From an uncultured Dehalococcoidia bacterium (GTDB lineage Bacteria > Chloroflexota > Dehalococcoidia > Lucifugimonadales > CAJWER01), in the NCBI GenBank assembly GCA_958296115.1, contig OY282442.1:1902943-1966942 (forward strand): DNA of 64,000 nucleotides, written 5' to 3'. Below, piece after piece: positions 5,924-43,410 of this stretch. Within the stretch, counting starts at the first letter, position 1. Every line of letters begins with the position of its first letter. Under the pieces are notes generated by a model that was given only the letters and a program-made list of their open reading frames with translations, made no database searches and was not told the origin of the DNA. The translations under genes were made by a program, and so were the position numbers.

Positions 5924-5959
5924 CGCGCGGCGCGGGCCGCGGTGTTGGTGAGAGGGACG

Positions 5960-6767: not shown

Positions 6768-6801
6768 TCTATCGCCTCCTTCGGTGTTGCCGGCAGTGGC
6801 A

Positions 6802-8915: not shown

Positions 8916-9608
8916 ATGGTGAATCCGCAGGGGGAGCGGTGCCCGCTGTGCGGCTCGGAGGCGGAGCCGTTTCACCGGGTGAGCAACCGGGCGATGAGGC
9001 GCGACTTCGTTCACTGCGGCGTGTGCGACTTGGTATCCGCGCCGCGGCGCTTCCACGTCGGGCCGGATGCGGAGCGGCATCGTTACTTGGAACACGACAA
9101 CGACCCGGACGACGCCGATTACCGCGCGTTTCTCGGCCGGCTGTGGGAACATCTCAGGCCTCGGCTGGAACCGGGGTCTCACGGCATGGACTACGGCGCG
9201 GGGCCCGGCCCGGCGCTGGCGGCGATGATGCGCGAGGACGGGTTCGAGGTTTCGCTGTACGACAAGCTCTTCCACCTGGATCGGGCTGCGCTGGCGAGGA
9301 CATACGACTTCATCGTATGCACGGAGACGGTGGAGCATTTCGACGACCCGGCGCGGGAGTTCGACACGCTGGACAGGCTGTTGAAGCCGTCAGGCTGGCT
9401 GGGGATAATGACTGCGATGCTGGACGACTGGGCGGGTTTCCCAGAGTGGCATTACCACCGGGACCCGACTCACGTGGGCTTCTACACGGAGCGCGTCATG
9501 CGATGGATCGCCGACAGGCACGGCTGGGAGGCCGAGTTTCCGCGTGAGAACGTAACTCTGTTCCGCAAGGGCAGTAGGGACGCGGAACGACGTGAGGCGC
9601 GTATATGA
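8916..9608 (+). CDS. class I SAM-dependent methyltransferase with N-terminal Cys4 zinc-ribbon
   Basis: It contains CPLCGSEAEPF...HCGVCDL followed by the motif I region GMDYGAGPG. The ATG at 8916 was chosen. Its stop overlaps the start of the NHL gene. Confidence 0.7.
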   Translation: MVNPQGERCPLCGSEAEPFHRVSNRAMRRDFVHCGVCDLVSAPRRFHVGPDAERHRYLEHDNDPDDADYRAFLGRLWEHLRPRLEPGSHGMDYGAGPGPALAAMMREDGFEVSLYDKLFHLDRAALARTYDFIVCTETVEHFDDPAREFDTLDRLLKPSGWLGIMTAMLDDWAGFPEWHYHRDPTHVGFYTERVMRWIADRHGWEAEFPRENVTLFRKGSRDAERREARI

Positions 9609-11722
9609 GCCTCCAGGATATTTTCGCCCGGCTGGAGCCTGGCGCCATAGCGACGATCGCCGGGGTTGGCTACGTAGAGGGGGTGGCCGCGAAGGACGCG
9701 CCTGCCGGGTGGCCGCTCGGCATCGCGCGGGACCTTGCCGGGGACCTGATAGTGGTGGACTACTGGGGGCACCGGATATGGCGGATAGGCGGGGACGGGA
9801 TATTGTGCCTGTTCGCGGGCGACGGGACGCCGGGCTTCGCGGGCGACGGAGGGCCGGCGTCTGATGCGCGGTTCGACCAGCCTCACGACCTGCGTATAGA
9901 CAAGCATGGCAACATGTACGTGTCGGACCTGGGGAACCATCGCATCAGGCGGATAGACGGTCAGACGGGCATCATCACCACGATAGCGGGCAACGGGAAG
10001 GTCGGGCGCGGCGGCGACGGAGGGCCTGCGGTGGATGCGGAGCTGGACACGCATTGCGGCATCGCGGTGGACGACGACGGCAACGTGTATATATCGAGCG
10101 AGTGGGCGAACAACATACGTCGCATAGACGCCAAGACGGGCGTCATCACCAGGTTCGCGGGCTGGGACGCGCGTCATCATCCGTCGGAGCGCGGGAGCAG
10201 CTGGCCGGCGTCGGGTCCTGGTCATAGCATGGGCGGGTATCACGGCGACGGCGGCCCTGCGCGGGACGCGGGGTTCCATCACCCTGAGCACCTGGCGTTC
10301 GACTCGCGGGGCGACCTGTACGTGTGCGACAACTCGAATCACCGCATACGCAAAATCGACATGGAATCGGGAATCGTGTCGACAGTGTTCGGAAATGGGC
10401 AGGCGGCGTCGAACGGGGACGGAGGGCCTGCGGTGGAGGCGAGCGTGTTCATGCCCGACGCGATATATGTTGACGGCTCGGACAACCTGTACGTTGGCGA
10501 GAAGTACGGCTTCAGGATACGCAGGGTTGACGGCGCGACGGGGATTGTGGAGACGCTGGTCGGAACTGGGTCGCCTGGGTTTGGAGAGGAGGGGCTGCCG
10601 GGGCCGGAGACGCGCTGCAATTCCTGCGAGGTTGGGGTGTGGGCCGATGCTGACGGGACGACGCTCTGGTCGGACTGCTCAGGGCGGGTCAGGCGGCGCG
10701 ACGGGGAGACTGGCGTCGTAACAACCGTCCTCGGGGGTACGAGCGTACACGACGGGGAGGAGGCCGGGTCTGCGTTCCTGCGCGGTCCGGGCGGCATATC
10801 GGTCGGGCCGGACGGCGGCTTGTACTTCGCGGACGTGTGGAACCAGCGTATTCGGGCGATAGACCCGGCTACGGGGGTGATACGGACGGTCGCCGGCAAC
10901 GGCGCGAGAGCGCACGGCGAGGACAACGGCCCGGCAGTGGAGGCGTATCTCGGCAATCCGAACGACGTGTCGGTGGATTCGCGCGGGCGCGTGGTGATCG
11001 CGGATACGAGGCATGGACACGTTCGCCGGGTGGATGAGGACGGCATAATCCGCGTGGTGGCGGGCACGGGGGAGAAGTGGGACATGGGTGACGGCGGGCC
11101 TGCGGTCGGGGCGCGCCTGATGCAGGTGATGTCGGTCGAGCGCGGTCCTGGAGAGGACATATACGTCGGCGACGTCGGGGCGGGCCGCATCAGGCGGATC
11201 GACGCGGATACGGGCATAATAGAGAGTGTGGCGGGCACAGGCGCGCCCGGCTATTCTGGGGACGGGGGGCCGGCGGTCGAAGCGCAGGTCGGGGCTCCAA
11301 CGGCTATCAGGTTCGACGGCGCGGGGAATCTATACTTCAGCGACGGCGACCACCACGTGGTGCGGAAGATAGACTCAGAGGGGATGATAACCACCATCGC
11401 GGGGACTGGCGGCAGGGGGTTTTCGGAGGACGGGACGCCGGCGGACAGCGCCAGACTGAGCGGGCCTCAGGGGCTGGAGGTATCGCGCGAGGGCGAGGTC
11501 TACGTGTCGGACACGGGGAACAACCGTGTGCGGCGGATTGCGTCGGACGGCAGTATCAGGACGGTGGCGGGCTGCGCGGAGGCGGGAGACTTCGGGGACG
11601 GCGGGCCGGCGTGCGAGGCGGGGCTGAACGCCCCGGACGGCCTGCGGCTCTATGGCGAGGATATACTGGTGGTCTCGGACAGGCTGAACAACCGTATCAA
11701 GGCGGTGAGGCTGCGCGAATGA
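9605..11722 (+). CDS. NHL-repeat beta-propeller protein (about 12 blades), no signal peptide
   Basis: Blades of the form GDGGPA..A.l..P..v..D..GnlYv.D..NhRIRrid..tGii.TvAG recur throughout the 705 aa. It is a paralog of 43411..45555. Confidence 0.8.
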   Translation: MSLQDIFARLEPGAIATIAGVGYVEGVAAKDAPAGWPLGIARDLAGDLIVVDYWGHRIWRIGGDGILCLFAGDGTPGFAGDGGPASDARFDQPHDLRIDKHGNMYVSDLGNHRIRRIDGQTGIITTIAGNGKVGRGGDGGPAVDAELDTHCGIAVDDDGNVYISSEWANNIRRIDAKTGVITRFAGWDARHHPSERGSSWPASGPGHSMGGYHGDGGPARDAGFHHPEHLAFDSRGDLYVCDNSNHRIRKIDMESGIVSTVFGNGQAASNGDGGPAVEASVFMPDAIYVDGSDNLYVGEKYGFRIRRVDGATGIVETLVGTGSPGFGEEGLPGPETRCNSCEVGVWADADGTTLWSDCSGRVRRRDGETGVVTTVLGGTSVHDGEEAGSAFLRGPGGISVGPDGGLYFADVWNQRIRAIDPATGVIRTVAGNGARAHGEDNGPAVEAYLGNPNDVSVDSRGRVVIADTRHGHVRRVDEDGIIRVVAGTGEKWDMGDGGPAVGARLMQVMSVERGPGEDIYVGDVGAGRIRRIDADTGIIESVAGTGAPGYSGDGGPAVEAQVGAPTAIRFDGAGNLYFSDGDHHVVRKIDSEGMITTIAGTGGRGFSEDGTPADSARLSGPQGLEVSREGEVYVSDTGNNRVRRIASDGSIRTVAGCAEAGDFGDGGPACEAGLNAPDGLRLYGEDILVVSDRLNNRIKAVRLRE

Positions 11723-26174: not shown

Positions 26175-26240
26175 TAGGCATCCTGAATCACCCTCTCCCG
26201 TCAAGGGAGAGGGGATAAGGCGGGGAGGGCTGGGTATATT
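26175..26240. repeat. REP/MITE-like hairpin element (family 1)
   Basis: The sequence is TAGGCATCCTGAATCACCCTCTCCCGTCAAGGGAGAGGGGATAAGGCGGGG. Confidence 0.8.
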
Positions 26241-26243
26241 GGG

Positions 26244-26945
26244 TCAGTGGAAGTTGTAACGGGGATTGCGCCTGTCGGTCCAGCGCCTCGGACCGGCGCT
26301 GGGGTCATCGGTCTCTCTGGGCTGCTCCGGGGCAATGGGGCGCGCGCCCATCGCCAGCAGGTTCGAGTTGGCGGGGCTGTCCAGCGTCAGGAGCGGCTTG
26401 CCGGAGTCGGCGAGCTTGCGGGCTAGGGCCTCGGTCTTGCCGCTGGGCGCGGCGTGGGTTATGAAGACTCGGCTGGCGAGGGCTGCGACCATCTCGTTGC
26501 GCTGGGCCGCCAGCTCCATCGTCGGGCGTCGGCGGGATTCGGGGAAGGGTGAGAGGACGAGCAGTCGGCCTTGCGCGATGGGGGGCCGCCATTCGCGTGG
26601 GACGCGCATCTTCTCGACGCTGCGGGCTGGACAGACGACAACGGGCTGGCTGCCGCGGAGCAGCAGGCGCAGGCACTCCTTTTCCATCGGCGTCTGGAAT
26701 CCGCCTATGACGGGCTCCCCGGCGTCGCGCATGGCCCTGGCGAGGTCGTAGGTTTCCAGTATCAGGCTGCCGGGGCAGCGGATGGAGCAGAAGAGGGCGG
26801 TATGTTGGGCGTGCAGGGCTTCGGGGTCGCCGATGGCGTGGAAGCGGGCGTCCTCTTCGCTCGGCGCCATCAGTGTGTCGGAGCCAAGGGCAAGCGGTAT
26901 GGCGGAGGCCGCGAGATCGCCTGTTCGGGCGCGGTTGTGGTCCAT
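26244..26945 (-). CDS. short DprA/Smf-like (SLOG superfamily) protein
   Basis: It has the DprA Rossmann-core pattern: ALFCSIRCPG...AGEPVIGGFQTPMEKECLRLLLRGSQPVVVCPARS...GRLLVLSPFP...RNEMVAALASRVFITHAAPSGKT. It lacks the N-terminal SAM and C-terminal DML1 domains of full-length DprA. Confidence 0.65.
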   Translation of the reverse strand: MDHNRARTGDLAASAIPLALGSDTLMAPSEEDARFHAIGDPEALHAQHTALFCSIRCPGSLILETYDLARAMRDAGEPVIGGFQTPMEKECLRLLLRGSQPVVVCPARSVEKMRVPREWRPPIAQGRLLVLSPFPESRRRPTMELAAQRNEMVAALASRVFITHAAPSGKTEALARKLADSGKPLLTLDSPANSNLLAMGARPIAPEQPRETDDPSAGPRRWTDRRNPRYNFH

Positions 26946-27116
26946 GCCGAGAAATCTAGCACGGGCGTTCGCGTCGTGTCAAGGGGCTGCGCGGCCTTAT
27001 GAATGCGTCTGTTCTCCCGATGTCTCGAAATGCGGTTCCAGCTCCAACGTGAACTAGGGCCAACCCTTGGGGTTGCCCCTGCGTGTCCCCCGCCTGGATT
27101 TTCTTCACCAGGAGAG

Positions 27117-27850
27117 GGGGAGGTTGCAGGCGGGACGCCTGCGCTCCTGCGCCTATGTCGCGTTGTCTCGGCCGGCTCCTTTCTGTTGGCGCTTTGGCGG
27201 GTTCTGGCCGCTTCTGCGCCTGGCTTGGGTGACCTGAATCACCCTCGCTCTAGCCCTTTCCCCTAGGGGGAGGGGCGCAGGGCGGGGCGTTTGCCCTCAC
27301 CCTGGCCCTTTCCCCCGTGAGGGAGAGGGTACTTGGCGGGTCTTGGGACCCGCGTCCTGTCTACTCCTGGTTTCTCCCGCTCTCGCGGGAGATGAGTATG
27401 CCTTGCAAGGCAGTGACTCCGGTACTTGCTTCGAGGATGCCGACGTCGATCGCCCGCCGACACTGGGGGTGCAGCCCCTCCTCTAACTTTCCCGGACGGC
27501 TGACGGTCCCTTGCGGGACCGCCTGCGTTTCGCGCTTGGACCTTCCACCCGCCAAGGCGTCGGGCTGCGCTGGCTACGGTCCTCCCGGTCGTCCGAGAGT
27601 CCGCACCTGGAACGGGGGAGACGTATTTGGCACTACGTCCTCCTGGCGAGGCGCCGAACATAGAGGGACCTTCTCGTACCGCGGGGGCCCCGTCCCAACA
27701 ACAGCCGCGGCATGAATACCCTGAAGATTTGGTAGAGGTGGGCTCTATGCTCGTTTGGAGTACGCCCCTTCGAGCCGTCTACCAGACTAGCACGGCTGTT
27801 CTCGCGGTGTCAAGGGGCGCTATGGGGCAATTTTGGGGCAATTTTCGGGG
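27117..27850. repeat. composite ~0.7-kb repeat, copy A (REP-like modules plus 298-nt conserved core at 27361..27658)
   Basis: It aligns by eye with 57985..58695 in the same orientation. The cores differ by 1 indel and 2 substitutions. Confidence 0.85.
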
Positions 27851-27860
27851 GCAAGGCCGG

Positions 27861-27912
27861 GGAATCACCCTCACCCTAGCCCTCTCCCGTCGAGGGAGAG
27901 GGGATGGGGAGC
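27861..27912. repeat. REP-like hairpin element (family 1)
   Basis: The sequence is GGAATCACCCTCACCCTAGCCCTCTCCCGTCGAGGGAGAGGGGATGGGGAG. Confidence 0.8.
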
Positions 27913-28103
27913 GCTGTCGAGACGCCTGCGGTCCTAGGATGAGGCGCGTTCGGCGAGAGTGTGCTAGGGTTGCGGATGGCTGGGCAGGCATTCCAACGGA
28001 GGAGTTGACGAATGGCGAACGCGGGCGCGTGGAGCAAGGTCACGCCTGCCGGGTTGTTCAGGCGCGGCGAGACGCAGGAGTGGGACAGGAAGGGTGGCGC
28101 GGC

Positions 28104-30068
28104 GTGAGCGGCCTGAACATCAGCAACTTCATATGGGGCATCGCGGACGACGTGCTGCGCGACATCTACGTGCGCGGCAAGTACAGGGACGTCATCCTGC
28201 CCATGACCGTCATCCGCCGCCTCGACGCGGTCTTGGAGCCGACGAAAGACGCCGCGCTCGCCATGAAGGCCCGGCTCGACGCCGCCGGCGTAGTGAACCA
28301 GGACGCCGCGCTGCGCAGCGAGTCCGGCCACGCCTTCTACAACACGTCGCCCTTCCGCCTGCGCGACCTCACCTCACGCGCCCGGCGGCAGCAGCTCAGG
28401 GCCGACTTCGAGGCATACCTCGACGGCTTCTCGCCAAACGTCCAGGAAGTCCTGGACAAGTTCAAGTTCCGCAACCAGATACCCACGCTGGTCGAGTCCG
28501 ACGCGCTGGGCTTCCTCATCGAGAAGTTCACGGACGACTCCATCAACCTCAGCCCGAGTCCGGACGTGGGCGCGGACGGCGAGACGATGGAGGGACTCGA
28601 CAACCACTCGATGGGGACGATATTCGAGGAGCTGATCCGGCGCTTCAACGAGGAGAACAACGAGGAGGCGGGCGAGCACTTCACGCCCCGCGACGTGGTG
28701 GAGCTGATGGCCCGCTTGGTGTTCATGCCGGTAGCGGACGAGATACGCTCCGGCACGTATCTGGTCTACGACGGCGCTTGCGGCACCGGCGGCATGTTGT
28801 CGGTGGCCGAGAACACCCTATACGACCTTGCCCAAGAGCGCGGCAAGGACGTGTCCATTCACCTGTACGGGCAGGAGGTGAACGCGGAGACCTACGCCAT
28901 CAGCAAGGCCGACATGCTGCTGAAGGGCGAGGGCGAAGAGGCGGACAACATGAAGTACGGCTCCACGCTTTCGGACGACGCCTTCCCGTCCTACGAGTTC
29001 GACTTCATGCTCTCCAATCCGCCTTACGGCAAGTCTTGGAAGAGCGACATGGAGCGCATGGGCGGCAAGAAGGACCTCGACGACCAGCGCTTCCTGACAG
29101 GGCACGGCGGCGACCCCGAATACAGCCTCGCCACGCGCTCCAGCGACGGCCAGATGATGTTCTTGGCGAACATGTTGAGCAAGATGAAGCATGGCGCCCT
29201 GTTGGGCAGCCGCATCGCGGAGGTTCACAACGGAAGCTCGCTGTTCACGGGCGACGCCGGGCAGGGCGAGAGCAACATCCGGCGCTGGATAATCGAGAAC
29301 GACTGGCTGGAAGCCATCGTCGCCCTGCCGCTCAACATGTTCTACAACACCGGCATCGCCACCTACATATGGGTCTTGACCAACCGCAAGCCGAAGCATC
29401 GGCGGGGCTTCGCGCAGCTCATAGACGCATCGGGTTGGCACGAGCCGATGCGGAAGAACCTGGGGTCGAAGAACCGCGAGCTGTCCGGCGAGTGCATCCA
29501 GCGCATATGCGGCGCCTTCCTGGCGTTCGAGGAGAGCGAGCAGTCGAAGATATTCCCCAACGAGGCGTTCGGCTACCACAAGGTAACCGTCGAGCGTCCG
29601 CTGCGAATCGAGGGCGCCGAACCCGGGCGCGTGTACAAGCCGGCGGAGGCGAGGGCGCTGCGGGACCAGGGCAGGCGCTCGGAGGACGCTCCTCCGCTCA
29701 TACGCAGGCTCATCATGCGCGGCGCGAAGCCCGACCCGATGCGCGGCCTGTTCGAGGCCGTCATAGACGGCAAGCCGCGCGTCGTCGAGTATTGGCCCGA
29801 CCCGGACCTGCGCGACACCGAGCAGGCGCCGATGCTGGAAGACGACGGAGTCGAGGCGTACCTGCGGCGGGAGGTTCTGCCCTACGCCCCGGACGCCTGG
29901 CACGACCCCGCCAGCGTCAAGATAGGCTACGAGATAAGCTTCACGCGCCACTTCTACAAGCCGCAGCCAATGCGGGCGCTGGAGGAGATACAGGCTGATA
30001 TAATGGCGGCGGAGCGGGAGACGGAGGGGCTGCTGGCGGAGATAGCGGGAGCGGCCTCAGCAAGGTGA
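28104..30068 (+). CDS. hsdM: Type I restriction-modification system, DNA methyltransferase subunit M
   Basis: It has an HsdM_N-like N-terminus (NFIWGIADDVLRDIYVRGKYRDVILPMTVIRRLD), the AdoMet motif YDGACGTGGML, and the catalytic LSNPPYGKSW. The GTG at 28104 follows AGGAAGGG. The track ORF from 27627 runs through the upstream repeat. Confidence 0.9.
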   Translation: MSGLNISNFIWGIADDVLRDIYVRGKYRDVILPMTVIRRLDAVLEPTKDAALAMKARLDAAGVVNQDAALRSESGHAFYNTSPFRLRDLTSRARRQQLRADFEAYLDGFSPNVQEVLDKFKFRNQIPTLVESDALGFLIEKFTDDSINLSPSPDVGADGETMEGLDNHSMGTIFEELIRRFNEENNEEAGEHFTPRDVVELMARLVFMPVADEIRSGTYLVYDGACGTGGMLSVAENTLYDLAQERGKDVSIHLYGQEVNAETYAISKADMLLKGEGEEADNMKYGSTLSDDAFPSYEFDFMLSNPPYGKSWKSDMERMGGKKDLDDQRFLTGHGGDPEYSLATRSSDGQMMFLANMLSKMKHGALLGSRIAEVHNGSSLFTGDAGQGESNIRRWIIENDWLEAIVALPLNMFYNTGIATYIWVLTNRKPKHRRGFAQLIDASGWHEPMRKNLGSKNRELSGECIQRICGAFLAFEESEQSKIFPNEAFGYHKVTVERPLRIEGAEPGRVYKPAEARALRDQGRRSEDAPPLIRRLIMRGAKPDPMRGLFEAVIDGKPRVVEYWPDPDLRDTEQAPMLEDDGVEAYLRREVLPYAPDAWHDPASVKIGYEISFTRHFYKPQPMRALEEIQADIMAAERETEGLLAEIAGAASAR

Positions 30069-30074
30069 ACGACC

Positions 30075-30515
30075 ATGACTGCCATTTCGCAGACAACCGA
30101 GCTTACGCGGGAAGCGCTTCGCACTGCGTCCGACGGACATGCCAAGACGTTTGACCCCTTGGATGTTCCGGCGCGGCTGGACGAGTTCCGAGGCATGAAT
30201 GACGGCTGGCTCGAAGGGAGCGGTAGAGCGCCCGGCCATGCGGGGCTTGACTGGCTGTCCGCCAGCTTCCGCCGCTTCTACCCTGGCGATACCCCCTTGC
30301 CGCACACCTATCCCACTGACGAAGGCGGCGTCCGCATGGAATGGTCCTGCGGAAGCGACGTCATGGCGCTCGAGATAGACCTGGACACCCATCGCGGCGA
30401 ATGGCTCTGGTTCGACCGGGACTCCGACGACGAGCGCGAGCATACCCTGAACATGGACGCGAGCGCCGATTGGGAATGGCTTGCCCAGGAAATCAACGGC
30501 TCGCCTAGCGTATGA
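30075..30515 (+). CDS. hypothetical acidic, Trp-rich 146-aa protein (first gene of the cassette inside the R-M operon)
   Basis: The ATG is 7 nt after the hsdM stop. The composition is protein-like (GWLEGSG, LDWLSASF, GGVRMEWSCG, GEWLWFDRDSDDE). I recognise no family. Confidence 0.55.
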   Translation: MTAISQTTELTREALRTASDGHAKTFDPLDVPARLDEFRGMNDGWLEGSGRAPGHAGLDWLSASFRRFYPGDTPLPHTYPTDEGGVRMEWSCGSDVMALEIDLDTHRGEWLWFDRDSDDEREHTLNMDASADWEWLAQEINGSPSV

Positions 30516-30545
30516 TATACTGGCGCCTCGAGCGGGAGGATGACC

Positions 30546-31103
30546 ATGGCCAAGCGGCACAACGTGTTCATCAGCTACTATTACGAGCAGGATAAAGAAT
30601 GCAAAGACCGGCTCGTCAGAGCGCTTGGCGACGGCATCGTGGACATGTCGGTCAATATCGGCGACATAGTCGACGTCCAGAATCCCACGGAAGCGACCCT
30701 CCAGAGGATTCGAGAGGATCATATAGCCCAGGTATCCGTGACGATCGTTCTGATAGGCCCCTGCACCTGGCAGCGGAAATACGTGGACTGGGAAATCGGG
30801 GCCAGCCTGAGGGACACTCCCACAAACCCCAGATGCGGTCTGCTGGGCATCCTCTTGCCCACTCATCCAGCACACGGAAAGGAAAGATACGACCCTCACT
30901 TGATTCCGCCGAGATTGGCGGCTAATACAGGCGGGGACGATCCCTACGCATTGGTCTATAGGTGGGCGCTCGATAAAGAAGAGATCCTTGGTTGGATTCA
31001 CCGGGCGTTCCTGCGCAGGAAGAAGCAGCCAGACCCGGACATCAGCCTGAAGCCGTTTGGACGCAACTGGAACAGGCCTTGCTCGGAAGGCTGGCAGGGC
31101 TAA
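30546..31103 (+). CDS. TIR-like domain protein (DUF1863/ThsB-like)
   Basis: It shows NVFISYYYEQDKECKDRL..., VTIVLIGPCTWQRKYVDWEIGASL (the WxxxE region with the candidate catalytic Glu), and GLLGILLP. A GGGAGG lies 6 nt before the ATG at 30546. Confidence 0.75.
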   Translation: MAKRHNVFISYYYEQDKECKDRLVRALGDGIVDMSVNIGDIVDVQNPTEATLQRIREDHIAQVSVTIVLIGPCTWQRKYVDWEIGASLRDTPTNPRCGLLGILLPTHPAHGKERYDPHLIPPRLAANTGGDDPYALVYRWALDKEEILGWIHRAFLRRKKQPDPDISLKPFGRNWNRPCSEGWQG

Positions 31104-31114
31104 GCGAGGGCTAT

Positions 31115-31555
31115 ATGACAAGCAACACCAACCTCGGCGTGGAGTCGCCGGCTGTGCAGGCGCACCTGTCCATCATGCAGGGCGTCATACAGCGCATGGC
31201 GGAGAATAGCCGCTCGTGCAAGCTGTGGTGCATAGCGCTGGTCGCCGCCACGCTGGTCCTCGTGGCGCGGCTCGAAAGGCCGGAGTACGTCTTGTTGACG
31301 CTCCTCCCGGCCGTGATGTTCCTGGTACTGGACACGTACTATCTCGCGCTGGAGCGGGCGTTACGAGGCTCCTACGAGGGGTTCGTCGGGAAGCTTCACG
31401 CGGGCGGGCTCGCCGCGTCCGACCTGTACGAGGTGAAGCCGTCCGGCTCCGTGCCCAAGATCTTCGTGGCGTGCCTGCGGTCGTTTTCGATATTGCCGTT
31501 TTACATTACGCTCGTGGTTATGGTATCATTGGCGTGGTGGGTGGTTGGGCTATGA
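31115..31555 (+). CDS. small 3-TM membrane protein (candidate effector; SLATT-like by impression only)
   Basis: 146 aa. An N-terminal amphipathic helix is followed by KLWCIALVAATLVLVA, YVLLTLLPAVMFLVLDTYYLAL and SFSILPFYITLVVMVSLAWWVV. The ATG is 12 nt after the TIR gene stop. Confidence 0.6.
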   Translation: MTSNTNLGVESPAVQAHLSIMQGVIQRMAENSRSCKLWCIALVAATLVLVARLERPEYVLLTLLPAVMFLVLDTYYLALERALRGSYEGFVGKLHAGGLAASDLYEVKPSGSVPKIFVACLRSFSILPFYITLVVMVSLAWWVVGL

Positions 31556-31586
31556 GGGCTGGACCCCGGACGCCGGCTGAGGACAG

Positions 31587-31808
31587 ATGGAGCGAGAGAT
31601 GAACATTGGCGAGTTGACAATCTCCGATGAGGAGCGGGAGTTCACCGATCGGTTCGAGTCGTCGGAGGACCTGAGGCGGTTCTTCGAGGAGTGCGACGCC
31701 CGCGAAGGCCCAGGCGTGGAACCGGATTGGGAGGAGCATAAGCGCGTAATCGGCGAATCGCGGCTGCTCGGCCTGCCGGCCGCCGTGAAACTGGTCTGCG
31801 CCACCTAG
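31587..31808 (+). CDS. very acidic 73-aa hypothetical protein
   Basis: The sequence begins MEREMNIGELTISDEEREFTDRFESSEDLRRFFEECDAREGPGVEPDWEEH... It is co-directional and sits between the TM gene and the second TIR gene. Confidence 0.45.
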   Translation: MEREMNIGELTISDEEREFTDRFESSEDLRRFFEECDAREGPGVEPDWEEHKRVIGESRLLGLPAAVKLVCAT

Positions 31809-31837
31809 TAGAAATGCAACAGGCAGAGGAGTAAGTC

Positions 31838-32437
31838 ATGTCTGAGAATATACGGAACGTCTTTATCAGCCACATACACCAGGATGACGAAGGCCTGAAG
31901 GGTCTTAAGAGATTGGCGGAAAAACGCGGAATGGTTTGCCGTGACTCGTCAATCACTATTGGCAAATTCAATAAGGCTACCAATGAGGATTACATAAAGT
32001 ACCAAATACTAGCGCCACACATCCGATGGGCCAGTGTGCTTGTCGTGTACATCTCTCCTGACACCAAGTGCAGTCGTTGGGTGAACTGGGAGATAGAGTA
32101 TGCCTATAAACAGGGGAAGAGGATAATTGGGGTATGGGAATGGGGCGCGAGGGATTGCGACGTTCCCGAAGCCCTCTACCGTTATGGAGACACGGTAGTG
32201 GGCTGGAACGGAGAGAGCATTGTAGATGCGATAAACGGCAAGTCCACTGAATGGCGCAATAAGGTTGATTCCAAGCAGAATGATTCGATCATCACTGCCA
32301 TCATCGGTATTGGCTTGTGCGTGATAGCCTACAAGTTCATCCAGCATCGGAAACAGTCCGCCTATGAGAGATTTGGATATAGTGAGCCTGTGGTGGGCTA
32401 CAGAAGACCACGCAGTCCTCGCTTTTATCGGCGCTAA
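31838..32437 (+). CDS. TIR-domain protein with C-terminal transmembrane anchor
   Basis: It shows NVFISHIHQDDEGLKGL..., VLVVYISPDTKCSRWVNWEIEYAYKQGKRIIGVW, a TM helix IITAIIGIGLCVIAYKFI, and a basic tail. A GAGGAG RBS is present. The gene is markedly AT-richer than its neighbours. Confidence 0.75.
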   Translation: MSENIRNVFISHIHQDDEGLKGLKRLAEKRGMVCRDSSITIGKFNKATNEDYIKYQILAPHIRWASVLVVYISPDTKCSRWVNWEIEYAYKQGKRIIGVWEWGARDCDVPEALYRYGDTVVGWNGESIVDAINGKSTEWRNKVDSKQNDSIITAIIGIGLCVIAYKFIQHRKQSAYERFGYSEPVVGYRRPRSPRFYRR

Positions 32438-32501
32438 TATGCGCTGAATTGAGAGTTGAACTGCACCCAATAAGGCCGATCTTATAGGGTGGCTGGCTCG
32501 C

Positions 32502-33824
32502 ATGTTTGCTAACAATATCAAGCCCTACCCTGAGTACAAGCCTTCCGGCATTGAGTGGCTGGGAGACGCGCCGGCTCATTGGGAGAACAAGCGTGCAAAA
32601 TGGCTGTTCCGCAAAATGATTAGGCCAGTTCGGAAGAGTGATGAGATCATCACTTGTTTCCGTGATGGTACTGTGACGCTTCGGAAAAACCGTCGCGAGT
32701 CTGGGTTCACGGAGGCTTTAAAGGAGATCGGATATCAAGGCATTCGCCATGGCGACCTTGTTATACACAGTATGGATGCATTCGCTGGCGCTATTGGTGT
32801 GGCTGACTCAGATGGAAAAGGCAGTCCCATCTATGCGGTTTGCAAGGCCGGCGCTCTCGCAAATGCTCATTACTACGCACATCTTCTCCGCGAGATGGCC
32901 CACAACCAATGGATAAAAGCGCTGGCAAAAGGAATCAGAGAACGCTCGTCTGACTTCAGGTACACAGATTTTGGTTTGCAGCTACTCCCTCTCCCACCCC
33001 TCCACGAACAGGCCGCCATCGCGCGGTATCTGGACCATGTGGATGGGCGTATCCAGCGGTATGTTCGGGCGAAGGAGCGGCTGGTGGAGCTGCTGTCCGA
33101 GTATCGGCGGGCGGTCATCGAGCGCGCCGTTACGCGGGGGCTCGACCCGCACGTTCGCCTCAAGCCTTCGGGCGTCGAGTGGCTGGGGGACGTACCAGCG
33201 CATTGGGAAGTGCGGCGGCTGAAATATGTGGCAACTCTTATAATGGGACAATCTCCTCCATCCAGCGATTGCAGCGACACTCCAGTAGGGCTACCGTTCC
33301 TGCAAGGCTGTGCCGAATTCGGAACACGCCATCCAAGTCCCGTACAGTTCTGCCGTACCCCTGCTAAAGTCAGTCCAGCGGGTGCAATTCTTATGTCCGT
33401 CCGAGCGCCGGTAGGACGATTGAACATGGCAGATAGAGAATATGGTATTGGTCGGGGCCTCTGTGCCATTCTTCCCGACAATGAAATCCTGCACACAGGC
33501 ATTGCCCAATACCAACTTGAAGTGCTTGAACGCGGGTTGCTCTTGGCTTCAACCGGGTCAACCTACGATGCCGTCAGTATAGGTGATGTCGCCAGCCAAC
33601 CAGTCATACTTCCACCCATCGACGAGCAAGCCGCCATAGCCGACCACCTCGACGGGGTGACTGCCGGCATAGACGCGGCGGTTAGCCTGGCGCGTCGGCA
33701 GGCGGAGTTGATGCGGGAGTATCGGGCGCGGTTGATTGCGGACGTGGTTACTGGCAAGATAGACGTGCGCGAGGCGGCGGCGGGCTTGCCGGCTGGGGCA
33801 GACGAGCAGGCCGGTGCGCTATAA
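32502..33824 (+). CDS. hsdS: Type I restriction-modification system, specificity subunit S (two TRDs)
   Basis: The conserved central and distal helices LPPLHEQAAIARYLD and LPPIDEQAAIADHLD each follow a GVEWLG/IEWLG...PAHWE variable domain. Confidence 0.9.
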   Translation: MFANNIKPYPEYKPSGIEWLGDAPAHWENKRAKWLFRKMIRPVRKSDEIITCFRDGTVTLRKNRRESGFTEALKEIGYQGIRHGDLVIHSMDAFAGAIGVADSDGKGSPIYAVCKAGALANAHYYAHLLREMAHNQWIKALAKGIRERSSDFRYTDFGLQLLPLPPLHEQAAIARYLDHVDGRIQRYVRAKERLVELLSEYRRAVIERAVTRGLDPHVRLKPSGVEWLGDVPAHWEVRRLKYVATLIMGQSPPSSDCSDTPVGLPFLQGCAEFGTRHPSPVQFCRTPAKVSPAGAILMSVRAPVGRLNMADREYGIGRGLCAILPDNEILHTGIAQYQLEVLERGLLLASTGSTYDAVSIGDVASQPVILPPIDEQAAIADHLDGVTAGIDAAVSLARRQAELMREYRARLIADVVTGKIDVREAAAGLPAGADEQAGAL

Positions 33825-33870
33825 TGCCGCCGAGAGGCCGGCAGACGCCGCGAAGAGGTTTGGACATAGG

Positions 33871-34989
33871 ATGAGGAACAGGCTTCACTCGATAAAGCTT
33901 CGGGGGTTCAAGACGATTCACGGGCTCGACGGGTTCGAGCCTGGACCCCTGAGCGTGCTCATCGGCCCGAATGGGGCTGGCAAGTCGAACTTCATATCCT
34001 TCTTCCAGATGATGAATCAGACTTTGGATGACGAGTACGGCCTCTCGCTCTACGTGGCGCAGCAGGGCGGAGCAAGCAAGCTTCTCCACGACGGGCCCGC
34101 CACAACTACTGAAATGAGAGCAACAATAGAACTGGTGTCCCAAGACCGTACAAGTTTCCACTACTGTTTTCGGTTGGGTTACGCGGCGAGGGACACCCTG
34201 ATCTTTACTGACGAGCATCACCAACATTGGGTTTGGCCGGAGGATTACGGACAGCGCGAACGGGAAGAGGGCGAGCGCGAAAGCGGGCAGCGGTTTCCGC
34301 GGATTCTCATTCATGCAGACTATGGCACCCCCGCCAGCGTCACCTGGGCCTTTCTGATGAACATTGATGTACATCAGTTCCACAACACGTCGGCGACGGC
34401 CCGGATGCAGACCATGTGGCGGGTCAACGACAACCGCTACCTCAAGGAAGACGCGGGCAACATCGCCCCCGTGCTGCTCCGCCTGAAGAGGGAAGACGGC
34501 AGATGCTACCGGCGGATTGTGGATACTATACGTCTGATTCTGCCGTTCTTCTCGGATTTCGAGCTGGAGCCTGATAAAGGTCACCTGCTGCTCGCCTGGC
34601 GCGAGCGGGGCAGCGACCAGGTGTTCGACGTTTCGCAGGCGTCGGACGGGATGCTGCGGGTCATATCGCTGGTTACGCTCCTGCTCCAGCCGGAAGAGGG
34701 GCTGCCGGAGGTGCTGATACTGGACGAGCCGGAGCTCGGGCTGCACCCATCCGCCATCAACGTGATAGGGGGGCTGATACGCGCCGCGTCAACGAAGACG
34801 CAGGTCATCGCCGCCACGCAGTCCGCCGCGCTGGTGGACTGCTTCGAGCCGGAGGATATTGTGGTGGTCGAGCGCGAGGAGCGCAGGTCCGTGTTCAGGA
34901 GGCTGGACCCGGAGTCGCTGAGTGAATGGCTGAAGGAGTATTCGCTCTCGGAGCTGTGGGAGAAGAACGTGCTCGGAGGGCGGCCGTGA
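33871..34989 (+). CDS. ABC-type AAA ATPase (AAA_15/AAA_21, COG4637-like)
   Basis: It has Walker A GPNGAGKSN, an ABC-signature-like ASDGMLR, and Walker B VLILDEPELGLHP. The ATG at 33871 (MRNRLHSIKLRGFKTI) is preferred over the GTG at 33814, which would overlap hsdS. Confidence 0.8.
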   Translation: MRNRLHSIKLRGFKTIHGLDGFEPGPLSVLIGPNGAGKSNFISFFQMMNQTLDDEYGLSLYVAQQGGASKLLHDGPATTTEMRATIELVSQDRTSFHYCFRLGYAARDTLIFTDEHHQHWVWPEDYGQREREEGERESGQRFPRILIHADYGTPASVTWAFLMNIDVHQFHNTSATARMQTMWRVNDNRYLKEDAGNIAPVLLRLKREDGRCYRRIVDTIRLILPFFSDFELEPDKGHLLLAWRERGSDQVFDVSQASDGMLRVISLVTLLLQPEEGLPEVLILDEPELGLHPSAINVIGGLIRAASTKTQVIAATQSAALVDCFEPEDIVVVEREERRSVFRRLDPESLSEWLKEYSLSELWEKNVLGGRP

Positions 34990-35672
34990 TGGCGGCGAGG
35001 CTCAACTTCATAGTGGAAGGACAGACCGAAGAGACCTTCGTGAAAAACATCTTGGGGCCGCACCTGGAGAGCCTGTCCATAGAGACTGCGTGGCGAAGTG
35101 TAGAGACGGGCCGCAAGGGCGGCTACGTACATCGCGGAGGTCTCAGCAGATACGCGCAAGCGAAGAGGGACATAACCGCTTGGATGAATGAGGACGCGGA
35201 CGCGCGGTTCACGACCATGTTCGACCTGTATGGGCTTCCGGAGGACTTCCCGGGCAACAAGGACGAGGCGCTGACGGGCAACCCCTATCGGCGCGTCGAG
35301 GGCTTGGAGCAGGCGCTGCGCGAGGACATATCCGACCCGCGGTTCATTCCGTACATCCAGCTTCATGAGTTCGAGGCGCTGCTGCTGGCCGACCCCCAGA
35401 AGCTCGATGTTCAGTTCTACGACCGCCCCAAAGGAATACGCAGTCTCGTAACGATGGCGTCGCGCTTCGAGTCGCCCGAGCTGATAGACGAAGGGGGAGA
35501 AACCGCGCCGTCGAAGCGAATCATCAAAAAGATACCAGAGTATAAACATAGGAAGAGGTCAGCCGGCCCCATCGTGGCAAGCTACATCGGGCTGCCAACG
35601 CTGCGGTCGAGGTGCGCGCACTTCGGGGAGTGGGTCCGTGAGTTGGAGCGCGTCGGGCAGCCAACGGATTGA
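34989..35672 (+). CDS. DUF4276-like protein (Toprim-like partner of the ATPase)
   Basis: The ATG overlaps the ATPase stop (TGATG). The N-terminus LNFIVEGQTEETFVKNIL matches the DUF4276 pattern (acidic EGxxE) as I recall it. It also contains HEFEALLLADP. Confidence 0.6.
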   Translation: MAARLNFIVEGQTEETFVKNILGPHLESLSIETAWRSVETGRKGGYVHRGGLSRYAQAKRDITAWMNEDADARFTTMFDLYGLPEDFPGNKDEALTGNPYRRVEGLEQALREDISDPRFIPYIQLHEFEALLLADPQKLDVQFYDRPKGIRSLVTMASRFESPELIDEGGETAPSKRIIKKIPEYKHRKRSAGPIVASYIGLPTLRSRCAHFGEWVRELERVGQPTD

Positions 35673-35770
35673 TGGAGAGCGCAACGGCCTCTATCATAGT
35701 ATGAGCCGGGGTTGTGGATAGGAGAGATGCAAGCGGCGCTGGATTGCGATAACCGGGGGGTTCCGGGTTG

Positions 35771-38700
35771 ATGAGCAAGGCTACGGACACCAGCGAGCGG
35801 GGGCTGGAGCGGCTGATATGCGCGGCGCTGACCGGGTGGACGGGCGACGAGCCGCAGAGGGTGCGCGAGCGGCCGTCGACCTATGGGGCTGGGTGGCTTT
35901 GCGGCGACCCCCAGAGCTATGACCGCGAATACTGCGTGGACCTGGCGCAGCTTGCGGCCTTCCTGCGGGATACGCAGCCGGAGGCGGCCGCGGACCTCGG
36001 CCTCGACGCGGACGGCCCGGCGCGGCGGAGGTTCTTGGCGCGGCTGCAATCCGAGGTCGGCAAGCGCGGGGTGGTCGACGCGCTGCGCGGCGGCGTCAAG
36101 CACGGGCCGCGCGAGCTCGACCTGTTCTACGGGATGCCGTCCCCCGGCAACGCGGCGGCGGGCGAGCGCTATGGGGCCAATCGGTTCAGCGTAACCCGCC
36201 AGCTGCGGTACAGCCGGGGCAACGCTCAGCTGGCGCTCGACCTGTGCATGTTCGTCAATGGGCTGCCGATAGCCACGTTCGAGCTCAAGAACAGCCTCAC
36301 CAAGCAGACCGTCGATGACGCCGTTCGGCAGTACAAGCGAGACCGAGACCCGCGGGAGAGGCTGTTCGAGCAGGGCCGATGCATGGCGCACTTCGCGGTC
36401 GACGACCAGCAGGTCTATTTCTGCACGCATCTCAAGGGCGAGTCGTCGTGGTTCCTGCCGTTCAACCGCGGCTGGAACGACGGCGCGGGCAATCCGCCGA
36501 ATCCGAACGGGCTGAAGACCGATTACCTGTGGGAGGAGACGTTCACGCGCGACAGCCTGACGGACATCATCGAGAATTACGCGCAGGTCGTCGAGACCGG
36601 GGACAAGCGCGGCGGACGCAAGGGCAGGGCGCAGATATGGCCGCGGTTCCACCAGCTGGAGGTAGTGCGGAAGCTGCTGGCGGACGTGTCCGAGTCAGGC
36701 GCGGGACGCCGGTACCTGGTGCAGCATTCGGCGGGGAGCGGCAAGTCGAACTCGATAGCGTGGCTGGCGCACCAGCTCATCGGGGTGGAGCGTGACGGCG
36801 GGGCGCTGTTCGCCTCGGTGATAGTGGTGACGGACCGCGTGGCGCTGGACAGGCAGATTCGGGACACGGTCAAGCAGTTCGCGCAGGTGGCCTCGGTCGT
36901 GGGCCACGCGGAGCGGTCGGGCGACCTGCGGCGGTTCATCGAGCAGGGCAAGAAGATCATCATTTCGACGGTGCAGAAGTTCCCGTTCATCCTCGACGAG
37001 GTCGGGAGCGAGCATCGGGGGCGGCGGTTCGCCATCATCATAGACGAAGCGCATTCGAGCCAGGGCGGACGCGCCTCGGCGGCGATCTCGAAGGTTCTTT
37101 CCGAAGAGGGGGACGCCGAGGACGGCGATACGAAGGTTCTTTCCGAGGACGGGGCCGCCGAGGACGGCGATACGATGGAGGACGAGATCAACCGGCTCAT
37201 CGAGTCGAAGAGGCTCCTTCCGAACGCAAGCTACTTCGCGTTCACGGCCACGCCCAAGAGCAAGACGCTGGAGATATTCGGGGAGCGGGAGCGGCAGCCG
37301 GACGGAACGGGACGCCGCCGGCCATTCCATAGCTACACGATGAAGCAGGCCATTCAGGAGGGGTTCATCGTGGACGTGCTGGAGCGCTACACGCCGGTGG
37401 ACAGCTACTACAGGTTGGTCAAGACGGTGGAGGGCGACCCCGAGTTCGACACGAGGCGGGCTGGGAAGAAGCTGCGGCGCTACGTCGAGAACCACGAGCG
37501 GGCGATTCGCGTCAAGGCGGAGATAATGGTGGACCACTTCCACGAGCAGGCGCTGGCGTCGCGCAAGGTCGGCGGACAGGCTCGCGCGATGGTGGTGACG
37601 AGCGGCGTCCAAAGGGCAATCCGATACTATTACGCCATCAGCGCCTACCTGAAGGAGCGCAAGAGCCCGCACCGCGCCATAGCGGCCTTTTCCGGCGAGC
37701 ATGAGTACGAGGGATCGAAGGTTACAGAGGCGATAATCAACGGGTTCTCGTCGAGCAGGATAGCCGAGCGGATACGGAAGCACCCGTACCGGTTCTTGGT
37801 CTGCGCCGACAAGTTCCAGACAGGCTACGACGAGCCGCTGATGCACACGATGTACGTGGACAAGCCGCTGGCCGGAATCAAGGCGGTGCAGACGCTGTCG
37901 CGCCTGAACCGGGCGCACCCGGACAAGCACGACGCGTTCGCGCTCGACTTCGCAAACGACATAGACACCATTCAGTACGCCTTCTCCGACTATTACCGCA
38001 CGACCATCCTCTCGAAGGAGACCGACCCGGACAAGCTGCACGACATGAAGGCGCTGCTGGACGGCCGCCAGGTGTACACCCAGGATCAAGTCTCGGAGCT
38101 CGTCGAGCGCTGCCTCGCGGGGGAGAAGCGCGACAGGCTCGACCCGATTCTGGACGCCTGCGTCTCGGAGTACCTGGAGCAGCTCGACGAGGACGGCCAG
38201 GTGAGCTTCAAGGGGACGGCGAAGGCGTTCCTACGGGCGTATGGATTTCTGGCGTCTATCTTGCCCTATGGGTACGCCGAATGGGAGAAGCTCTCCATCT
38301 TCCTGGACTTCCTAACGCCCAGGCTGCCCGCGCCGGCGGAGGACGACCTGTCCCGGGGCGTGCTGGAATCCATAGACATGGATAGCTACCGGGCGGAGAA
38401 GCAGTCGGCGCAGGAGATCCGCCTTTCGGACGAGGACGCCGAGATCGAGCCGGCGCCAACCGACGGCGGGGGCGCCAAGCCCGACCCCGACATGGACCGG
38501 CTGTCGAACATCGTGCGGGACTTCAACGACAGGTTCGGGAACATCGACTGGAGGGACGAGGACAAGATAACGCGGGTAATCTTCGAGGACCTGCCGGCGA
38601 AGGTGGCTGAGGACAAGGCGTATCAGAATGCGATAGTGAACTCCGATCTCCAGAACGCGCGGATAGAGCACGACAAGGCCCTGAGGCAGGCCGTAACCGA

Positions 38701-38824
38701 TGGGCTTGCGGACCATGCCGAGCTGTTCAAGCAGTTCAGCGACAACGAATCGTTCCGCAAGTGGCTGATGGAGATGGTCTTCTCTATGACGTACAGGCCT
38801 GCCGAGCCCGCCAATGCGTCGTGA
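35771..38824 (+). CDS. hsdR: Type I restriction enzyme, R subunit (helicase-nuclease)
   Basis: It has an N-terminal nuclease region (LDLCMFVNGLPIATFELKN), helicase motif I HSAGSGKSNS, the DEAH box IIIDEAHSSQGG, later helicase motifs, and a long C-terminal domain. Confidence 0.9.
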   Translation: MSKATDTSERGLERLICAALTGWTGDEPQRVRERPSTYGAGWLCGDPQSYDREYCVDLAQLAAFLRDTQPEAAADLGLDADGPARRRFLARLQSEVGKRGVVDALRGGVKHGPRELDLFYGMPSPGNAAAGERYGANRFSVTRQLRYSRGNAQLALDLCMFVNGLPIATFELKNSLTKQTVDDAVRQYKRDRDPRERLFEQGRCMAHFAVDDQQVYFCTHLKGESSWFLPFNRGWNDGAGNPPNPNGLKTDYLWEETFTRDSLTDIIENYAQVVETGDKRGGRKGRAQIWPRFHQLEVVRKLLADVSESGAGRRYLVQHSAGSGKSNSIAWLAHQLIGVERDGGALFASVIVVTDRVALDRQIRDTVKQFAQVASVVGHAERSGDLRRFIEQGKKIIISTVQKFPFILDEVGSEHRGRRFAIIIDEAHSSQGGRASAAISKVLSEEGDAEDGDTKVLSEDGAAEDGDTMEDEINRLIESKRLLPNASYFAFTATPKSKTLEIFGERERQPDGTGRRRPFHSYTMKQAIQEGFIVDVLERYTPVDSYYRLVKTVEGDPEFDTRRAGKKLRRYVENHERAIRVKAEIMVDHFHEQALASRKVGGQARAMVVTSGVQRAIRYYYAISAYLKERKSPHRAIAAFSGEHEYEGSKVTEAIINGFSSSRIAERIRKHPYRFLVCADKFQTGYDEPLMHTMYVDKPLAGIKAVQTLSRLNRAHPDKHDAFALDFANDIDTIQYAFSDYYRTTILSKETDPDKLHDMKALLDGRQVYTQDQVSELVERCLAGEKRDRLDPILDACVSEYLEQLDEDGQVSFKGTAKAFLRAYGFLASILPYGYAEWEKLSIFLDFLTPRLPAPAEDDLSRGVLESIDMDSYRAEKQSAQEIRLSDEDAEIEPAPTDGGGAKPDPDMDRLSNIVRDFNDRFGNIDWRDEDKITRVIFEDLPAKVAEDKAYQNAIVNSDLQNARIEHDKALRQAVTDGLADHAELFKQFSDNESFRKWLMEMVFSMTYRPAEPANAS

Positions 38825-40900: not shown

Positions 40901-40965
40901 TAAATCACCCTCACCCGTCAAGGGAGAGGGGGTAAGGCGGGGCTGCCTACAGCCGCCTAGCGCTA
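40901..40965. repeat. REP/MITE-like hairpin element (family 1)
   Basis: The sequence is TAAATCACCCTCACCCGTCAAGGGAGAGGGGGTAAGGCGGGGCTGCCTACAGCCGCCTAGCGCTA. Confidence 0.8.
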
Positions 40966-42872: not shown

Positions 42873-43391
42873 ATGAGCGGCATCGCAAGCTACCAGGTTA
42901 CGTGCTTCGACCACCGGCCGGTTGCCGAGGTCAACGCCAACATACGGGCAGCCGCGCGCGCGGTCGACATCCTCCAGATTGACGTTGACTCCATAAGGCG
43001 CGACCACTTCGAGTCGCTGCGGGACGCGCTCGCCAGCGCGCCGGACCTGAGGGTGCGAGTCCTCACCCTGGACCCCGCGAGTCCGTACATCGCCCACCGC
43101 GCCCACCAGCTCGGCGTTACGTTCGCGGAGCTGCGGCAGCAGGTGCGGCGGAACATCAGGGAGCTCGTGAGCGCCCTCAGCGGCCCCAACTTCTCGCTCA
43201 GAATCTACGACGACTACCCGACGCAGATCACCTTCACCATCGACGACGCGGTGTACGTATCGACGATGGCGCGCAACCACCGGAGCCGGGAGCTATGCGC
43301 CTTCAAGCTCGACCGCCGCGCGCCCGGCGTAGACCGATCGTTCGGCTTTCAGTTCGATGCCCTCTGGCACGACTCCAGGGAGTTCAGCTAG
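42873..43391 (+). CDS. hypothetical protein (172 aa)
   Basis: The ATG at 42873 follows TAGGAGG. The pattern DILQIDVDS...RVRVLTLDPASPY...ITFTIDDAVYVS vaguely recalls PLD-like/DUF5919-type domains, which I could not verify. Confidence 0.5.
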   Translation: MSGIASYQVTCFDHRPVAEVNANIRAAARAVDILQIDVDSIRRDHFESLRDALASAPDLRVRVLTLDPASPYIAHRAHQLGVTFAELRQQVRRNIRELVSALSGPNFSLRIYDDYPTQITFTIDDAVYVSTMARNHRSRELCAFKLDRRAPGVDRSFGFQFDALWHDSREFS

Positions 43392-43410
43392 GCCGCGGGG
43401 CCGCAACGAC

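Follow-up and report, generated by a model that had tools for sequence, protein, structure and literature searches.

A high-copy dispersed repeat with a conserved predicted promoter and a predicted structured RNA in an uncultured Dehalococcoidia bacterium

The analysed stretch of DNA, 64,000 nt in length and referred to as the window, contains two copies of a repeat, designated A and B. Copy A is flanked by a DprA/SLOG-like gene, encoded on the minus strand, and by HsdM, which belongs to a type I restriction-modification island. Copy B is neighboured by a xylose-isomerase-like TIM-barrel (sugar-phosphate-isomerase-like) gene and the gene of a branched-chain amino-acid periplasmic binding protein. 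A third copy, C, was found in an ENA metagenome contig (locus L003); it is 94% identical to copy A and its neighbours are SCO1/SenC and a PLP enzyme. The insertion contexts of A, B and C are thus unrelated. B and C each meet the 3' end of a gene that converges on them. The possibility that the element is the leader of a downstream gene was considered and dropped, since this arrangement applies to two of the three copies.

The core of copy A (27361-27658, 298 nt, read on the minus strand) had been described in a sequence-only reading as nearly identical to 58209-58505, which was borne out by global alignment with one indel (27371) and four substitutions (27398, 27507, 27624, 27635). A repeat search of the window resulted in 99% identity between 27372-27658 and 58219-58505. 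The looser homology noticed around the core was found as well, extending over ~27086-27935 and 57960-58760 (~0.75 kb). In 50-nt windows, copies A and B were 98-100% identical within the core; towards the promoter the identity was 82-92%, and where the REP units differ it decreased to 52-76%. The similarity of the two copies is far beyond chance. A duplication produced by the assembly was ruled out because the unique flanks differ between the copies, unique contigs of an independent metagenome run into both A and B, and the third copy is present in another assembly.

The same reading had taken the element for a two-copy feature, which proved to be wrong, as tens of copies per genome were detected. 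With the spurious minus-strand ORF as the query, four called 'proteins' were matched in a collection of 5.8 billion proteins, and a fifth pseudo-protein, P0005, was added by a cluster look-up. P0003 sits on the ENA metagenome contig and gave locus L003. The pseudo-ORFs P0001, P0002, P0004 and P0005 are located on one contig of 3,002,008 bp, which also carries the window's own binding protein, P0006; the contig is therefore the source genome of the window and contains at least six copies of the element.

The sequence was present in one SRA sample only, in four runs (X1-X4). In run X2, a 7-kb stretch of genes and spacers had an even depth of 22-36, indicating a DNA library with a single-copy depth of about 23. 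The core formed a single unitig with a depth of 1794, which is about 78-fold over single copy in X2, and the ratio was 83-135-fold in X1-X4. The word depth was 1430-2900 on the core versus 10-30 on the flanks, and one sequence dominates in the metagenome. Extrapolation from three copies in the 83.5 kb sequenced (the 64-kb window and 19.5 kb of L003) to about 100 per genome agrees with the depth ratio. As related strains in the sample may inflate this ratio, the copy number is given as tens to ~80, and the true number per genome could be as low as 30-40. At up to ~80 copies, the element takes up about 2% of the 3.0-Mb genome with 65% G+C. At copy B, a unique contig ended at 58052 (30 nt into the repeat at k=31) and the next one began at 58694, which sets the high-copy block at ~0.66 kb; at 58694 the depth fell from ~5000-7400 to ~100-200. 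With many copies at unrelated intergenic sites and no coding capacity, the element is a dispersed repeat.

The core is overlapped by 132-aa ORFs on either strand, and some copies were called by gene callers, as would be expected of a degraded protein-coding or small-protein gene. Such an origin is hardly credible. The 1-nt indels between the copies break every reading frame, with the indels of the variant D described below netting +1. The ORF translations are low-complexity and rich in Arg, Pro and Gly, and the translations of the overlapping ORFs had no Pfam match. When 1.84 billion representative proteins were searched in full with HMMER, only the element's own pseudo-ORFs (3 clusters) and one REP translation were returned. 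No ORF is conserved, and by its predicted reading frames the element is non-coding.

Known RNA families were searched with Rfam 15. At the gathering score, two tRNAs only were detected in the window and the element was unmatched; at E<=10, the region 26700-28200 gave only spurious miRNA matches on REP hairpins. The earlier failure to place the element in a family was therefore reproduced at both thresholds, the unmatched families including RNase P, tmRNA, SRP, 6S, OLE, GOLLD, ROOL, raiA, HEARO, group I and II introns and riboswitches. Nothing was found with ARAGORN. GNRA loops (GAGA, GCAA) are present on the minus strand, as had been reported. Group II domain V is about 34 nt long, with an AGC triad, a GNRA loop and a 2-nt bulge; the longest GNRA hairpin of the element has 9 bp and no bulge. 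The predicted 5' end of the RNA is ACGGCUCG, in place of the 5' GUGYG of group II introns, and there was no match to Intron_gpII or group-II-D1D4. A CsrB-like GGA sponge was also considered and dropped, the GGA count being near expectation with most GGA located in stems.

Read on the minus strand, the 5' part of the element consists of a GCAGGCG-N3-CGCCTGC hairpin, an optional REP unit, AAATTGCCCC repeats and the predicted promoter. The 3' part comprises the ~440 nt that follow, a terminal hairpin, two REP units (a third in some copies), a module of ~80 nt and a second GCAGGCG hairpin oriented as the first. The AAATTGCCCC repeats are phased with an 11-nt spacing, number two or three per copy and are kept in B and C. 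In copy A, they were read from the sequence as the direct repeats GAAAATTGCCCC/AAAATTGCCCC at 27823-27845 (minus strand), immediately before the -35; they resemble an A-tract or UP element, and they may alternatively be a regulator site. The predicted sigma-70-type promoter of copy A, TTGACA-N18-TAGTCT with TGc before the -10, is located at 27784-27813 (minus strand), and the transcription start predicted from it lies at ~27776-27778 on the same strand. The 34-nt block containing this promoter is identical in A, B and C and was absent elsewhere in the window at up to 3 mismatches (0 expected). Together with the phased upstream repeats, it is the sole perfectly conserved stretch outside the core and it points into the element. 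A related promoter, TTGACA-N14-GTGCTAGATT, directly precedes the ATG of the DprA-like gene beside copy A, which indicates that the organism uses promoters of this kind.

The predicted ncRNA of copy A spans ~440 nt (27336-27778, minus strand) and is supported by the fold z-score and covariation. Its 5' domain (~27640-27778) varies more than the remainder: the centre and the 3' part are nearly invariant, and a GC hairpin stands at the terminus. This hairpin, GCGGGUC-CCAA-GACCCGC (helix 21, minus strand), has the invariant stem and variable loop that were noticed earlier, the loop being CCAA in copy A and GCAA in copy B; its position, given previously as 27325-27342, was off by 11 nt and is corrected to 27336-27353. 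The hairpin is a possible 3' end of the RNA or a possible terminator lacking a U tract. It is followed at 27236-27335 by two REP-like units of the family CCCTCTCCC-N5-GGGAGAGGG (repeat families D3-D5, D10 and D12). The conserved 3' module, called module 8 (GCCAGGCGCAGAAGCGG...GGCGCAGGAGC; 27143-27225, minus strand), travels with the core: it accompanies the core in A and B and partly in C, and its depth was ~1400 compared with ~23 for single copy (X2). The gap between core and module 8 is variable and filled with REP units. On the 3' side of copy A lies the hairpin GCAGGCGGGACGCCTGC at 27126-27142, whose 5'-side partner at 27911-27929 is degenerate.

The layout of copy B corresponds to that of copy A. 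Phased AAA(T/C)TGCCCC repeats are located at 58663-58692 (minus strand), where the high-copy block ends, and the predicted promoter, assigned by sequence identity with that of copy A, at 58632-58661 (minus strand). The predicted transcript of ~440 nt, placed by alignment and fold, covers 58184-58625 (minus strand) including the core. REP-like units assigned by repeat families occupy 58101-58183 and module 8 58023-58100, the high-copy block starting at ~58023. The 3'-side hairpin GCAGGCGGTACGCCTGC (58000-58016) has a 5'-side partner, GCAGGCGAGACGCCTGC (58730-58746), in the same orientation. In copy B, the GCAGGCG hairpin is thus found on both sides. Copy A has an intact one at its 3' side and a degenerate one at its 5' side, and copy C has it on the 5' side only. 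As it also stands free at 60990-61006, it is regarded as a small REP-like module and not as a proven end of the element.

Linking terminal inverted repeats were absent at the ends of copies A and B, where only internal 13-16-nt matches were detected. The ends merge into REP-like modules that differ between the copies, which blurs the exact junctions; an empty site, a target-site duplication or a sharp boundary in the sequence was not seen among the copies. Joints in the metagenome that had been read as empty sites were rejected, as they were REP-to-REP matches from other loci. REP-like matches numbered 12 in the window, 4 in L003 and 0 in the loci of relatives L004-L010.

The minus-strand fold of the element had a z-score of -5.2 against shuffles and the opposite strand one of -4.5. 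For the 449-nt transcript, the MFE was -197 kcal/mol on the minus and -194 kcal/mol on the plus strand, with 15 G-U pairs on each. With equal energies and equal G-U counts, thermodynamics cannot call the strand; G-U counts were accordingly dropped as strand evidence. The structure was predicted from copy A alone and was scored on A, B, C and variant D. In the minus-strand fold, four pairs were changed on both sides with complementarity kept; such double-sided changes were 0 in six slid controls, and four were reached in 4 of 500 shuffles. The plus-strand fold contained one double-sided pair, a level that was reached in 173 of 500 shuffles. The strand supported by covariation in the predicted folds is the one along which the predicted promoter points, and we infer that the strand is best argued from these two, the perfectly conserved promoter and the covariation.

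The predicted fold contains 21 helices over ~440 nt, many of them GC-rich, and the same 5' domain was obtained when A, B, C and E were folded separately. The compensatory pair at 27624/27635 (GACGTA/TACGTC to GACGCA/TGCGTC) put forward from copies A and B is real. At 27733 and 27747, the proposed base changes are also real, and the proposed pairing of these two with each other was wrong, as shown by copy C and variant E: copy C would have a C.A mismatch in a hairpin 27733-27747. Instead, 27747 pairs with ~27660 and 27733 with ~27718, each pair covarying independently. Two pairs (alignment columns 32/119 and 46/61) were seen in all four haplotype combinations, always complementary: U-A and A-U in A, C-G and G-C in B, C-G and A-U in C, U-A and G-C in E.

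Variants D and E were reconstructed from contig-difference tables. Variant D had a depth of 148.6 of 1577, corresponding to ~10% of the copies, and variant E a depth of 302.9 (~12% of the copies), with 3-5 of its 12 substitutions deduced from depth sums and end distances. In variant D, GAGG/CCUC is replaced by GGGG/CCCC, an A.C mismatch at a hairpin base becomes U-A, the stem is longer by two complementary inserted pairs, and the changes in a 9-bp helix are confined to the loop. In variant E, a 7-nt deletion shortens a 10-nt loop to 3 nt and its stem changes from A-U to G-C, another helix has a complementary A/U insertion, and a G.U pair becomes A-U. Across the variants, two helices gained complementary insertions and the indels were absorbed by loops. 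About 16 cells were unpaired within the predicted pairs, and the stem of the GCAA hairpin has a U.C mismatch in most copies. Resting on five variants (A, B, C, D, E), two of them reconstructed, the covariation in the predicted fold is modest and specific to one strand.

The element is present many times in unrelated contexts and has no coding capacity, its promoter sequence is conserved, and its covariation preserves the fold; the earlier proposal of a structured RNA or non-autonomous element that is non-coding holds in these three points as far as testable. We consider it somewhat probable that the element is a lineage-restricted, non-autonomous dispersed repeat of ~0.66 kb which encodes a structured RNA serving the element itself and which has spread as DNA. 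Each copy would be a small minus-strand transcription unit with phased A-tract repeats, a near-consensus sigma-70 promoter and a ncRNA of ~440 nt ending in the GC hairpin, and the REP-like hairpin modules would be embedded around this unit. In this reading, the promoter would fire and the RNA would accumulate. The copies may have spread through a transposase or a REP-associated tyrosine transposase encoded elsewhere, or alternatively by recombination between REP clusters. A spread as DNA is indicated because the promoter belongs to the repeat, which reaches at least 60 nt beyond the predicted start on its upstream side; for the same reason, a SINE-like spread through an RNA intermediate was dropped. 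Selection would keep the fold, and the RNA could assist the mobilising enzyme, as a cofactor or a guide-like partner, or it could act in retention. The subfamilies D and E (~10% each), which keep the fold by compensatory changes, suggest that proliferating lineages need the structure, and this favours an RNA serving the element itself over a role towards neighbouring genes. The decrease of identity from the core to the flanks calls for selection or gene conversion besides transposition, as a recent transposition burst alone does not predict it.

It is also possible, if rather unlikely, that the element works as DNA only, as a long MITE- or REP-composite, its helices being DNA hairpins for a transposase or recombinase or irrelevant, and the promoter-like sequence being incidental or reading out into neighbouring DNA. 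The high copy number, the REP-like hairpins that surround and interrupt the unit and the equally good folding of both strands are consistent with this. To our knowledge, transposases recognise no more than short hairpins or inverted repeats at the ends, and the element has no terminal inverted repeats. The perfectly conserved, inward-pointing 34-nt block and the covariation, which supports a 21-helix, 440-nt fold on the strand of the promoter and not on the other, likewise argue against a DNA-only repeat. Genome-wide ncRNA surveys of the Breaker lab class multi-copy structured motifs as selfish 'mobile/repeat sequence candidates' (MRSC; PMC11109978), which also speaks for a DNA-only repeat. 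The element shares with these candidates a covariation-supported motif that is present dozens of times in a genome and is oriented independently of its neighbours. Most of the published ones consist of one long stem and are phylogenetically widespread, whereas the element has a large multi-domain fold in one lineage (PMC11109978).

The flanking modules, CCCTCTCCC-N5-GGGAGAGGG and GCAGGCG-N3-CGCCTGC, resemble the classic short palindromic intergenic repeats of the REP/BIME/REPIN type, and the element always lies among them. These modules alone have the form of the imperfect intergenic palindromes of 20-40 nt that define REP/BIME; the core of the element, with 440 nt, ~20 helices and a predicted promoter of its own, differs from such a palindrome or doublet. 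Short palindromes and MITEs with inverted ends make up the usual dispersed repeats of bacteria. The Correia elements of Neisseria, which are promoter-carrying MITEs, are similarly dispersed, high-copy and intergenic and bring a promoter (here predicted). In contrast to them, the element lacks terminal inverted repeats, no target-site duplication was found, it is 3-4 times longer, and its promoter faces its own interior.

The copies could otherwise be deletion derivatives, keeping both ends, of an autonomous insertion sequence with full-length copies elsewhere, the RNA being the guide or bridge-type arm of the IS200/IS605 omega-RNA or IS110 bridge-RNA kind; this is unlikely. The similar GCAGGCG-NNN-CGCCTGC hairpins near both ends, in the same orientation and without inverted terminal repeats, correspond to the IS200/IS605 layout, and the REP-filled gap between core and module 8 is a possible site of a lost ORF. 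PATEs and other IS200/IS605 derivatives are also non-coding, a few hundred bp long and free of terminal inverted repeats, have similar hairpins near both ends in direct orientation and are transcribed internally (here predicted). In the element, however, the hairpins also stand free and copy C lacks the 3' one, and a conserved flanking cleavage motif was not seen around it. ORF-less multi-copy HEARO and omega RNAs give a precedent for this origin, and the element resembles HEARO/IscB omega-RNA (RF02033) in being a large multi-helix RNA, here predicted, of a mobile element with possibly many ORF-less copies. It differs in having no Rfam match, HEARO included, even at E<=10, and no IscB, IsrB, TnpB or HNH gene was found next to A, B or C; in the whole 64-kb window and the 19.5 kb of L003, no gene of TnpA, TnpB, IscB, another transposase or a recombinase was found. 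Since the RNA 5' end is constant and the promoter with at least 60 nt upstream lies within the repeat, conserved among the copies, no flank-derived 5' guide is apparent, and it is REP units that follow the 3' end at A, B and C.

Loci of relatives were fetched via homologues of the binding protein, with L004, L009 and L010 at 82-84% identity, L005-L008 at 63% and L011 at 65%. In ~100 kb from these relatives, no core copy was found by blastn, including five loci with a binding protein at 63-84% identity that were compared at word size 7, and a search of their loci with a covariance model for the three-way-junction domain, its filters being switched off, detected no copy. L011 contained only a REP unit, upstream of the orthologous binding-protein gene. 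No matches resulted from blastn against plasmids and phages or from two viral-contig scans. An exact 20-mer scan of GTDB genomes, which diverged relatives would escape, gave only a chance match in a low-GC Lachnospiraceae MAG. A metagenome scan with the core pseudo-protein, poorly aimed at diverged relatives, gave one false locus (a polyprenyl synthase gene) among the matches listed, and a profile-based protein search brought no new copies. The family appears to be confined to one lineage.

This distribution bears on whether the copies form a family of cellular ncRNA genes, serving the host for example as regulatory or sponge RNAs, that was duplicated and kept uniform by gene conversion. The strong conserved predicted promoter in each copy, the structure-preserving changes and the higher conservation of the core than of the flanks, a pattern compatible with selection or conversion at the level of the RNA, are in accordance with such a family. 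Against this stand the absence from relatives' loci and the other public data searched, the unrelated locations among REP elements, and the share of ~2% that the tens of copies have in a 3-Mb genome; we know of no bacterial sRNA family that comes near these numbers. A host gene family is accordingly considered quite improbable.

A self-serving dispersed repeat, the preferred reading, could go further. We put forward only tentatively that the RNA of ~440 nt belongs to an undescribed class of large structured RNAs and is a working part of a selfish element, as a cofactor, guide or ribozyme for mobilisation or retention. With about 80 strong promoters, such an RNA would be among the most abundant of the cell. 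A strong inward promoter of its own, here predicted, together with a covariation-supported 440-nt fold at ~2% of a small genome is unusual for a bacterial repeat. If expressed, the element would offer a new large RNA architecture to characterise and may lead to an unfamiliar RNA-dependent mechanism of mobility or retention in an uncultured lineage; if not expressed, it would be another lineage-specific repeat family. The HEARO motif before its link to IscB nucleases is a comparable case, being a curiosity at first and later shown to be the guide RNA of these nucleases. Even a silent element is relevant to annotation and assembly, because gene callers turned several copies into hypothetical proteins. 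Among these called pseudo-proteins, P0004 represents a diverged copy.

Copies of the element were called by gene callers as "hypothetical proteins" of 170-190 aa (P0001-P0005, pseudo-ORFs from element copies at loci outside the window), and at 57933-60815 an open frame across copy B lengthened the ORF of the binding protein to a spurious 960 aa. In copy A, the core hairpin CGCCUUGGCGGGU (27547-27559) has a 13-nt complement in the 3' module (27190-27202). The complementarity is shared by copy B (58066-58078 with 58394-58406). On the RNA strand, an A-to-G change produces a U.G wobble. The match between the two stretches could be a long-range pairing or a coincidence.

A solitary GCAGGCGGGACGCCTGC hairpin was located at 60990-61006, 3' of the binding-protein gene, which shows that the hairpins at the element ends are repeat units that can stand alone. 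Between this gene and the solitary copy, at 60850-60885, is another, GC-rich hairpin that resembles a terminator. A further repeated module, CTCTCCTGGTGAAGAAAATCCAGGCGGGGGACACGCAGGGGCAACCC...GGCCCTAGTTCACGTTGGA, was detected at 27020-27120 of the window and at 10530-10615 of the independent metagenome contig L003. It follows copies A and C, is absent after copy B, and its depth was approximately 7-20x single copy.

A REP-like family of the form (GAATCACCCTCACCCTAGCC)CTCTCCC-N5-GGGAGAG(GGGATAAGGCGGG) accounts for 12 hits within the window and 4 on L003. The units are mostly immediately 3' of genes; those in the window include 8391-8433, 26191-26233, 27862-27903, 40908-40950, 45854-45896, 48265-48307, 55814-55856 and 58774-58816, among others. 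The canonical form was not found in the loci L004-L010 from relatives, and one REP-like unit was present in a further such locus, L011, 5' of the orthologous gene.

Copy A adjoins a defence island (26244-38824). Its members are a DprA/SLOG-like protein, HsdM (about 28094-30068), a minus-strand ORF without assigned identity, a ThsB-like TIR protein (31838-32437), HsdS (32502-33824), an AAA_21 ATPase (33814-34989) together with DUF4276 (34926-35672), and HsdR (35768-38824). The DprA/SLOG-like gene is preceded by the minus-strand promoter TTGACAcgacgcgaacgcccGTGCTAGATT (26953-26982). As the promoter ends 7 nt ahead of the ATG (26945), the mRNA of this gene is probably leaderless. About 26/34 positions are identical between this promoter and the promoter block of the element and, given this similarity, it is possible that the promoter module is itself repeated or mobile.

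Across the window, Rfam matched nothing but two adjacent minus-strand tRNA genes (5851-5924 and 5963-6036). The direct-repeat families D1, D6 and D17 are due to two paralogous NHL-repeat beta-propeller proteins (9605-11722 and 43357-45555). In-frame tandem duplications of 42 nt (93% identity) were observed at two separate places: 37089-37172, within HsdR, and 50078-50161, within the N-terminal portion of an ORF for a hydrolase.
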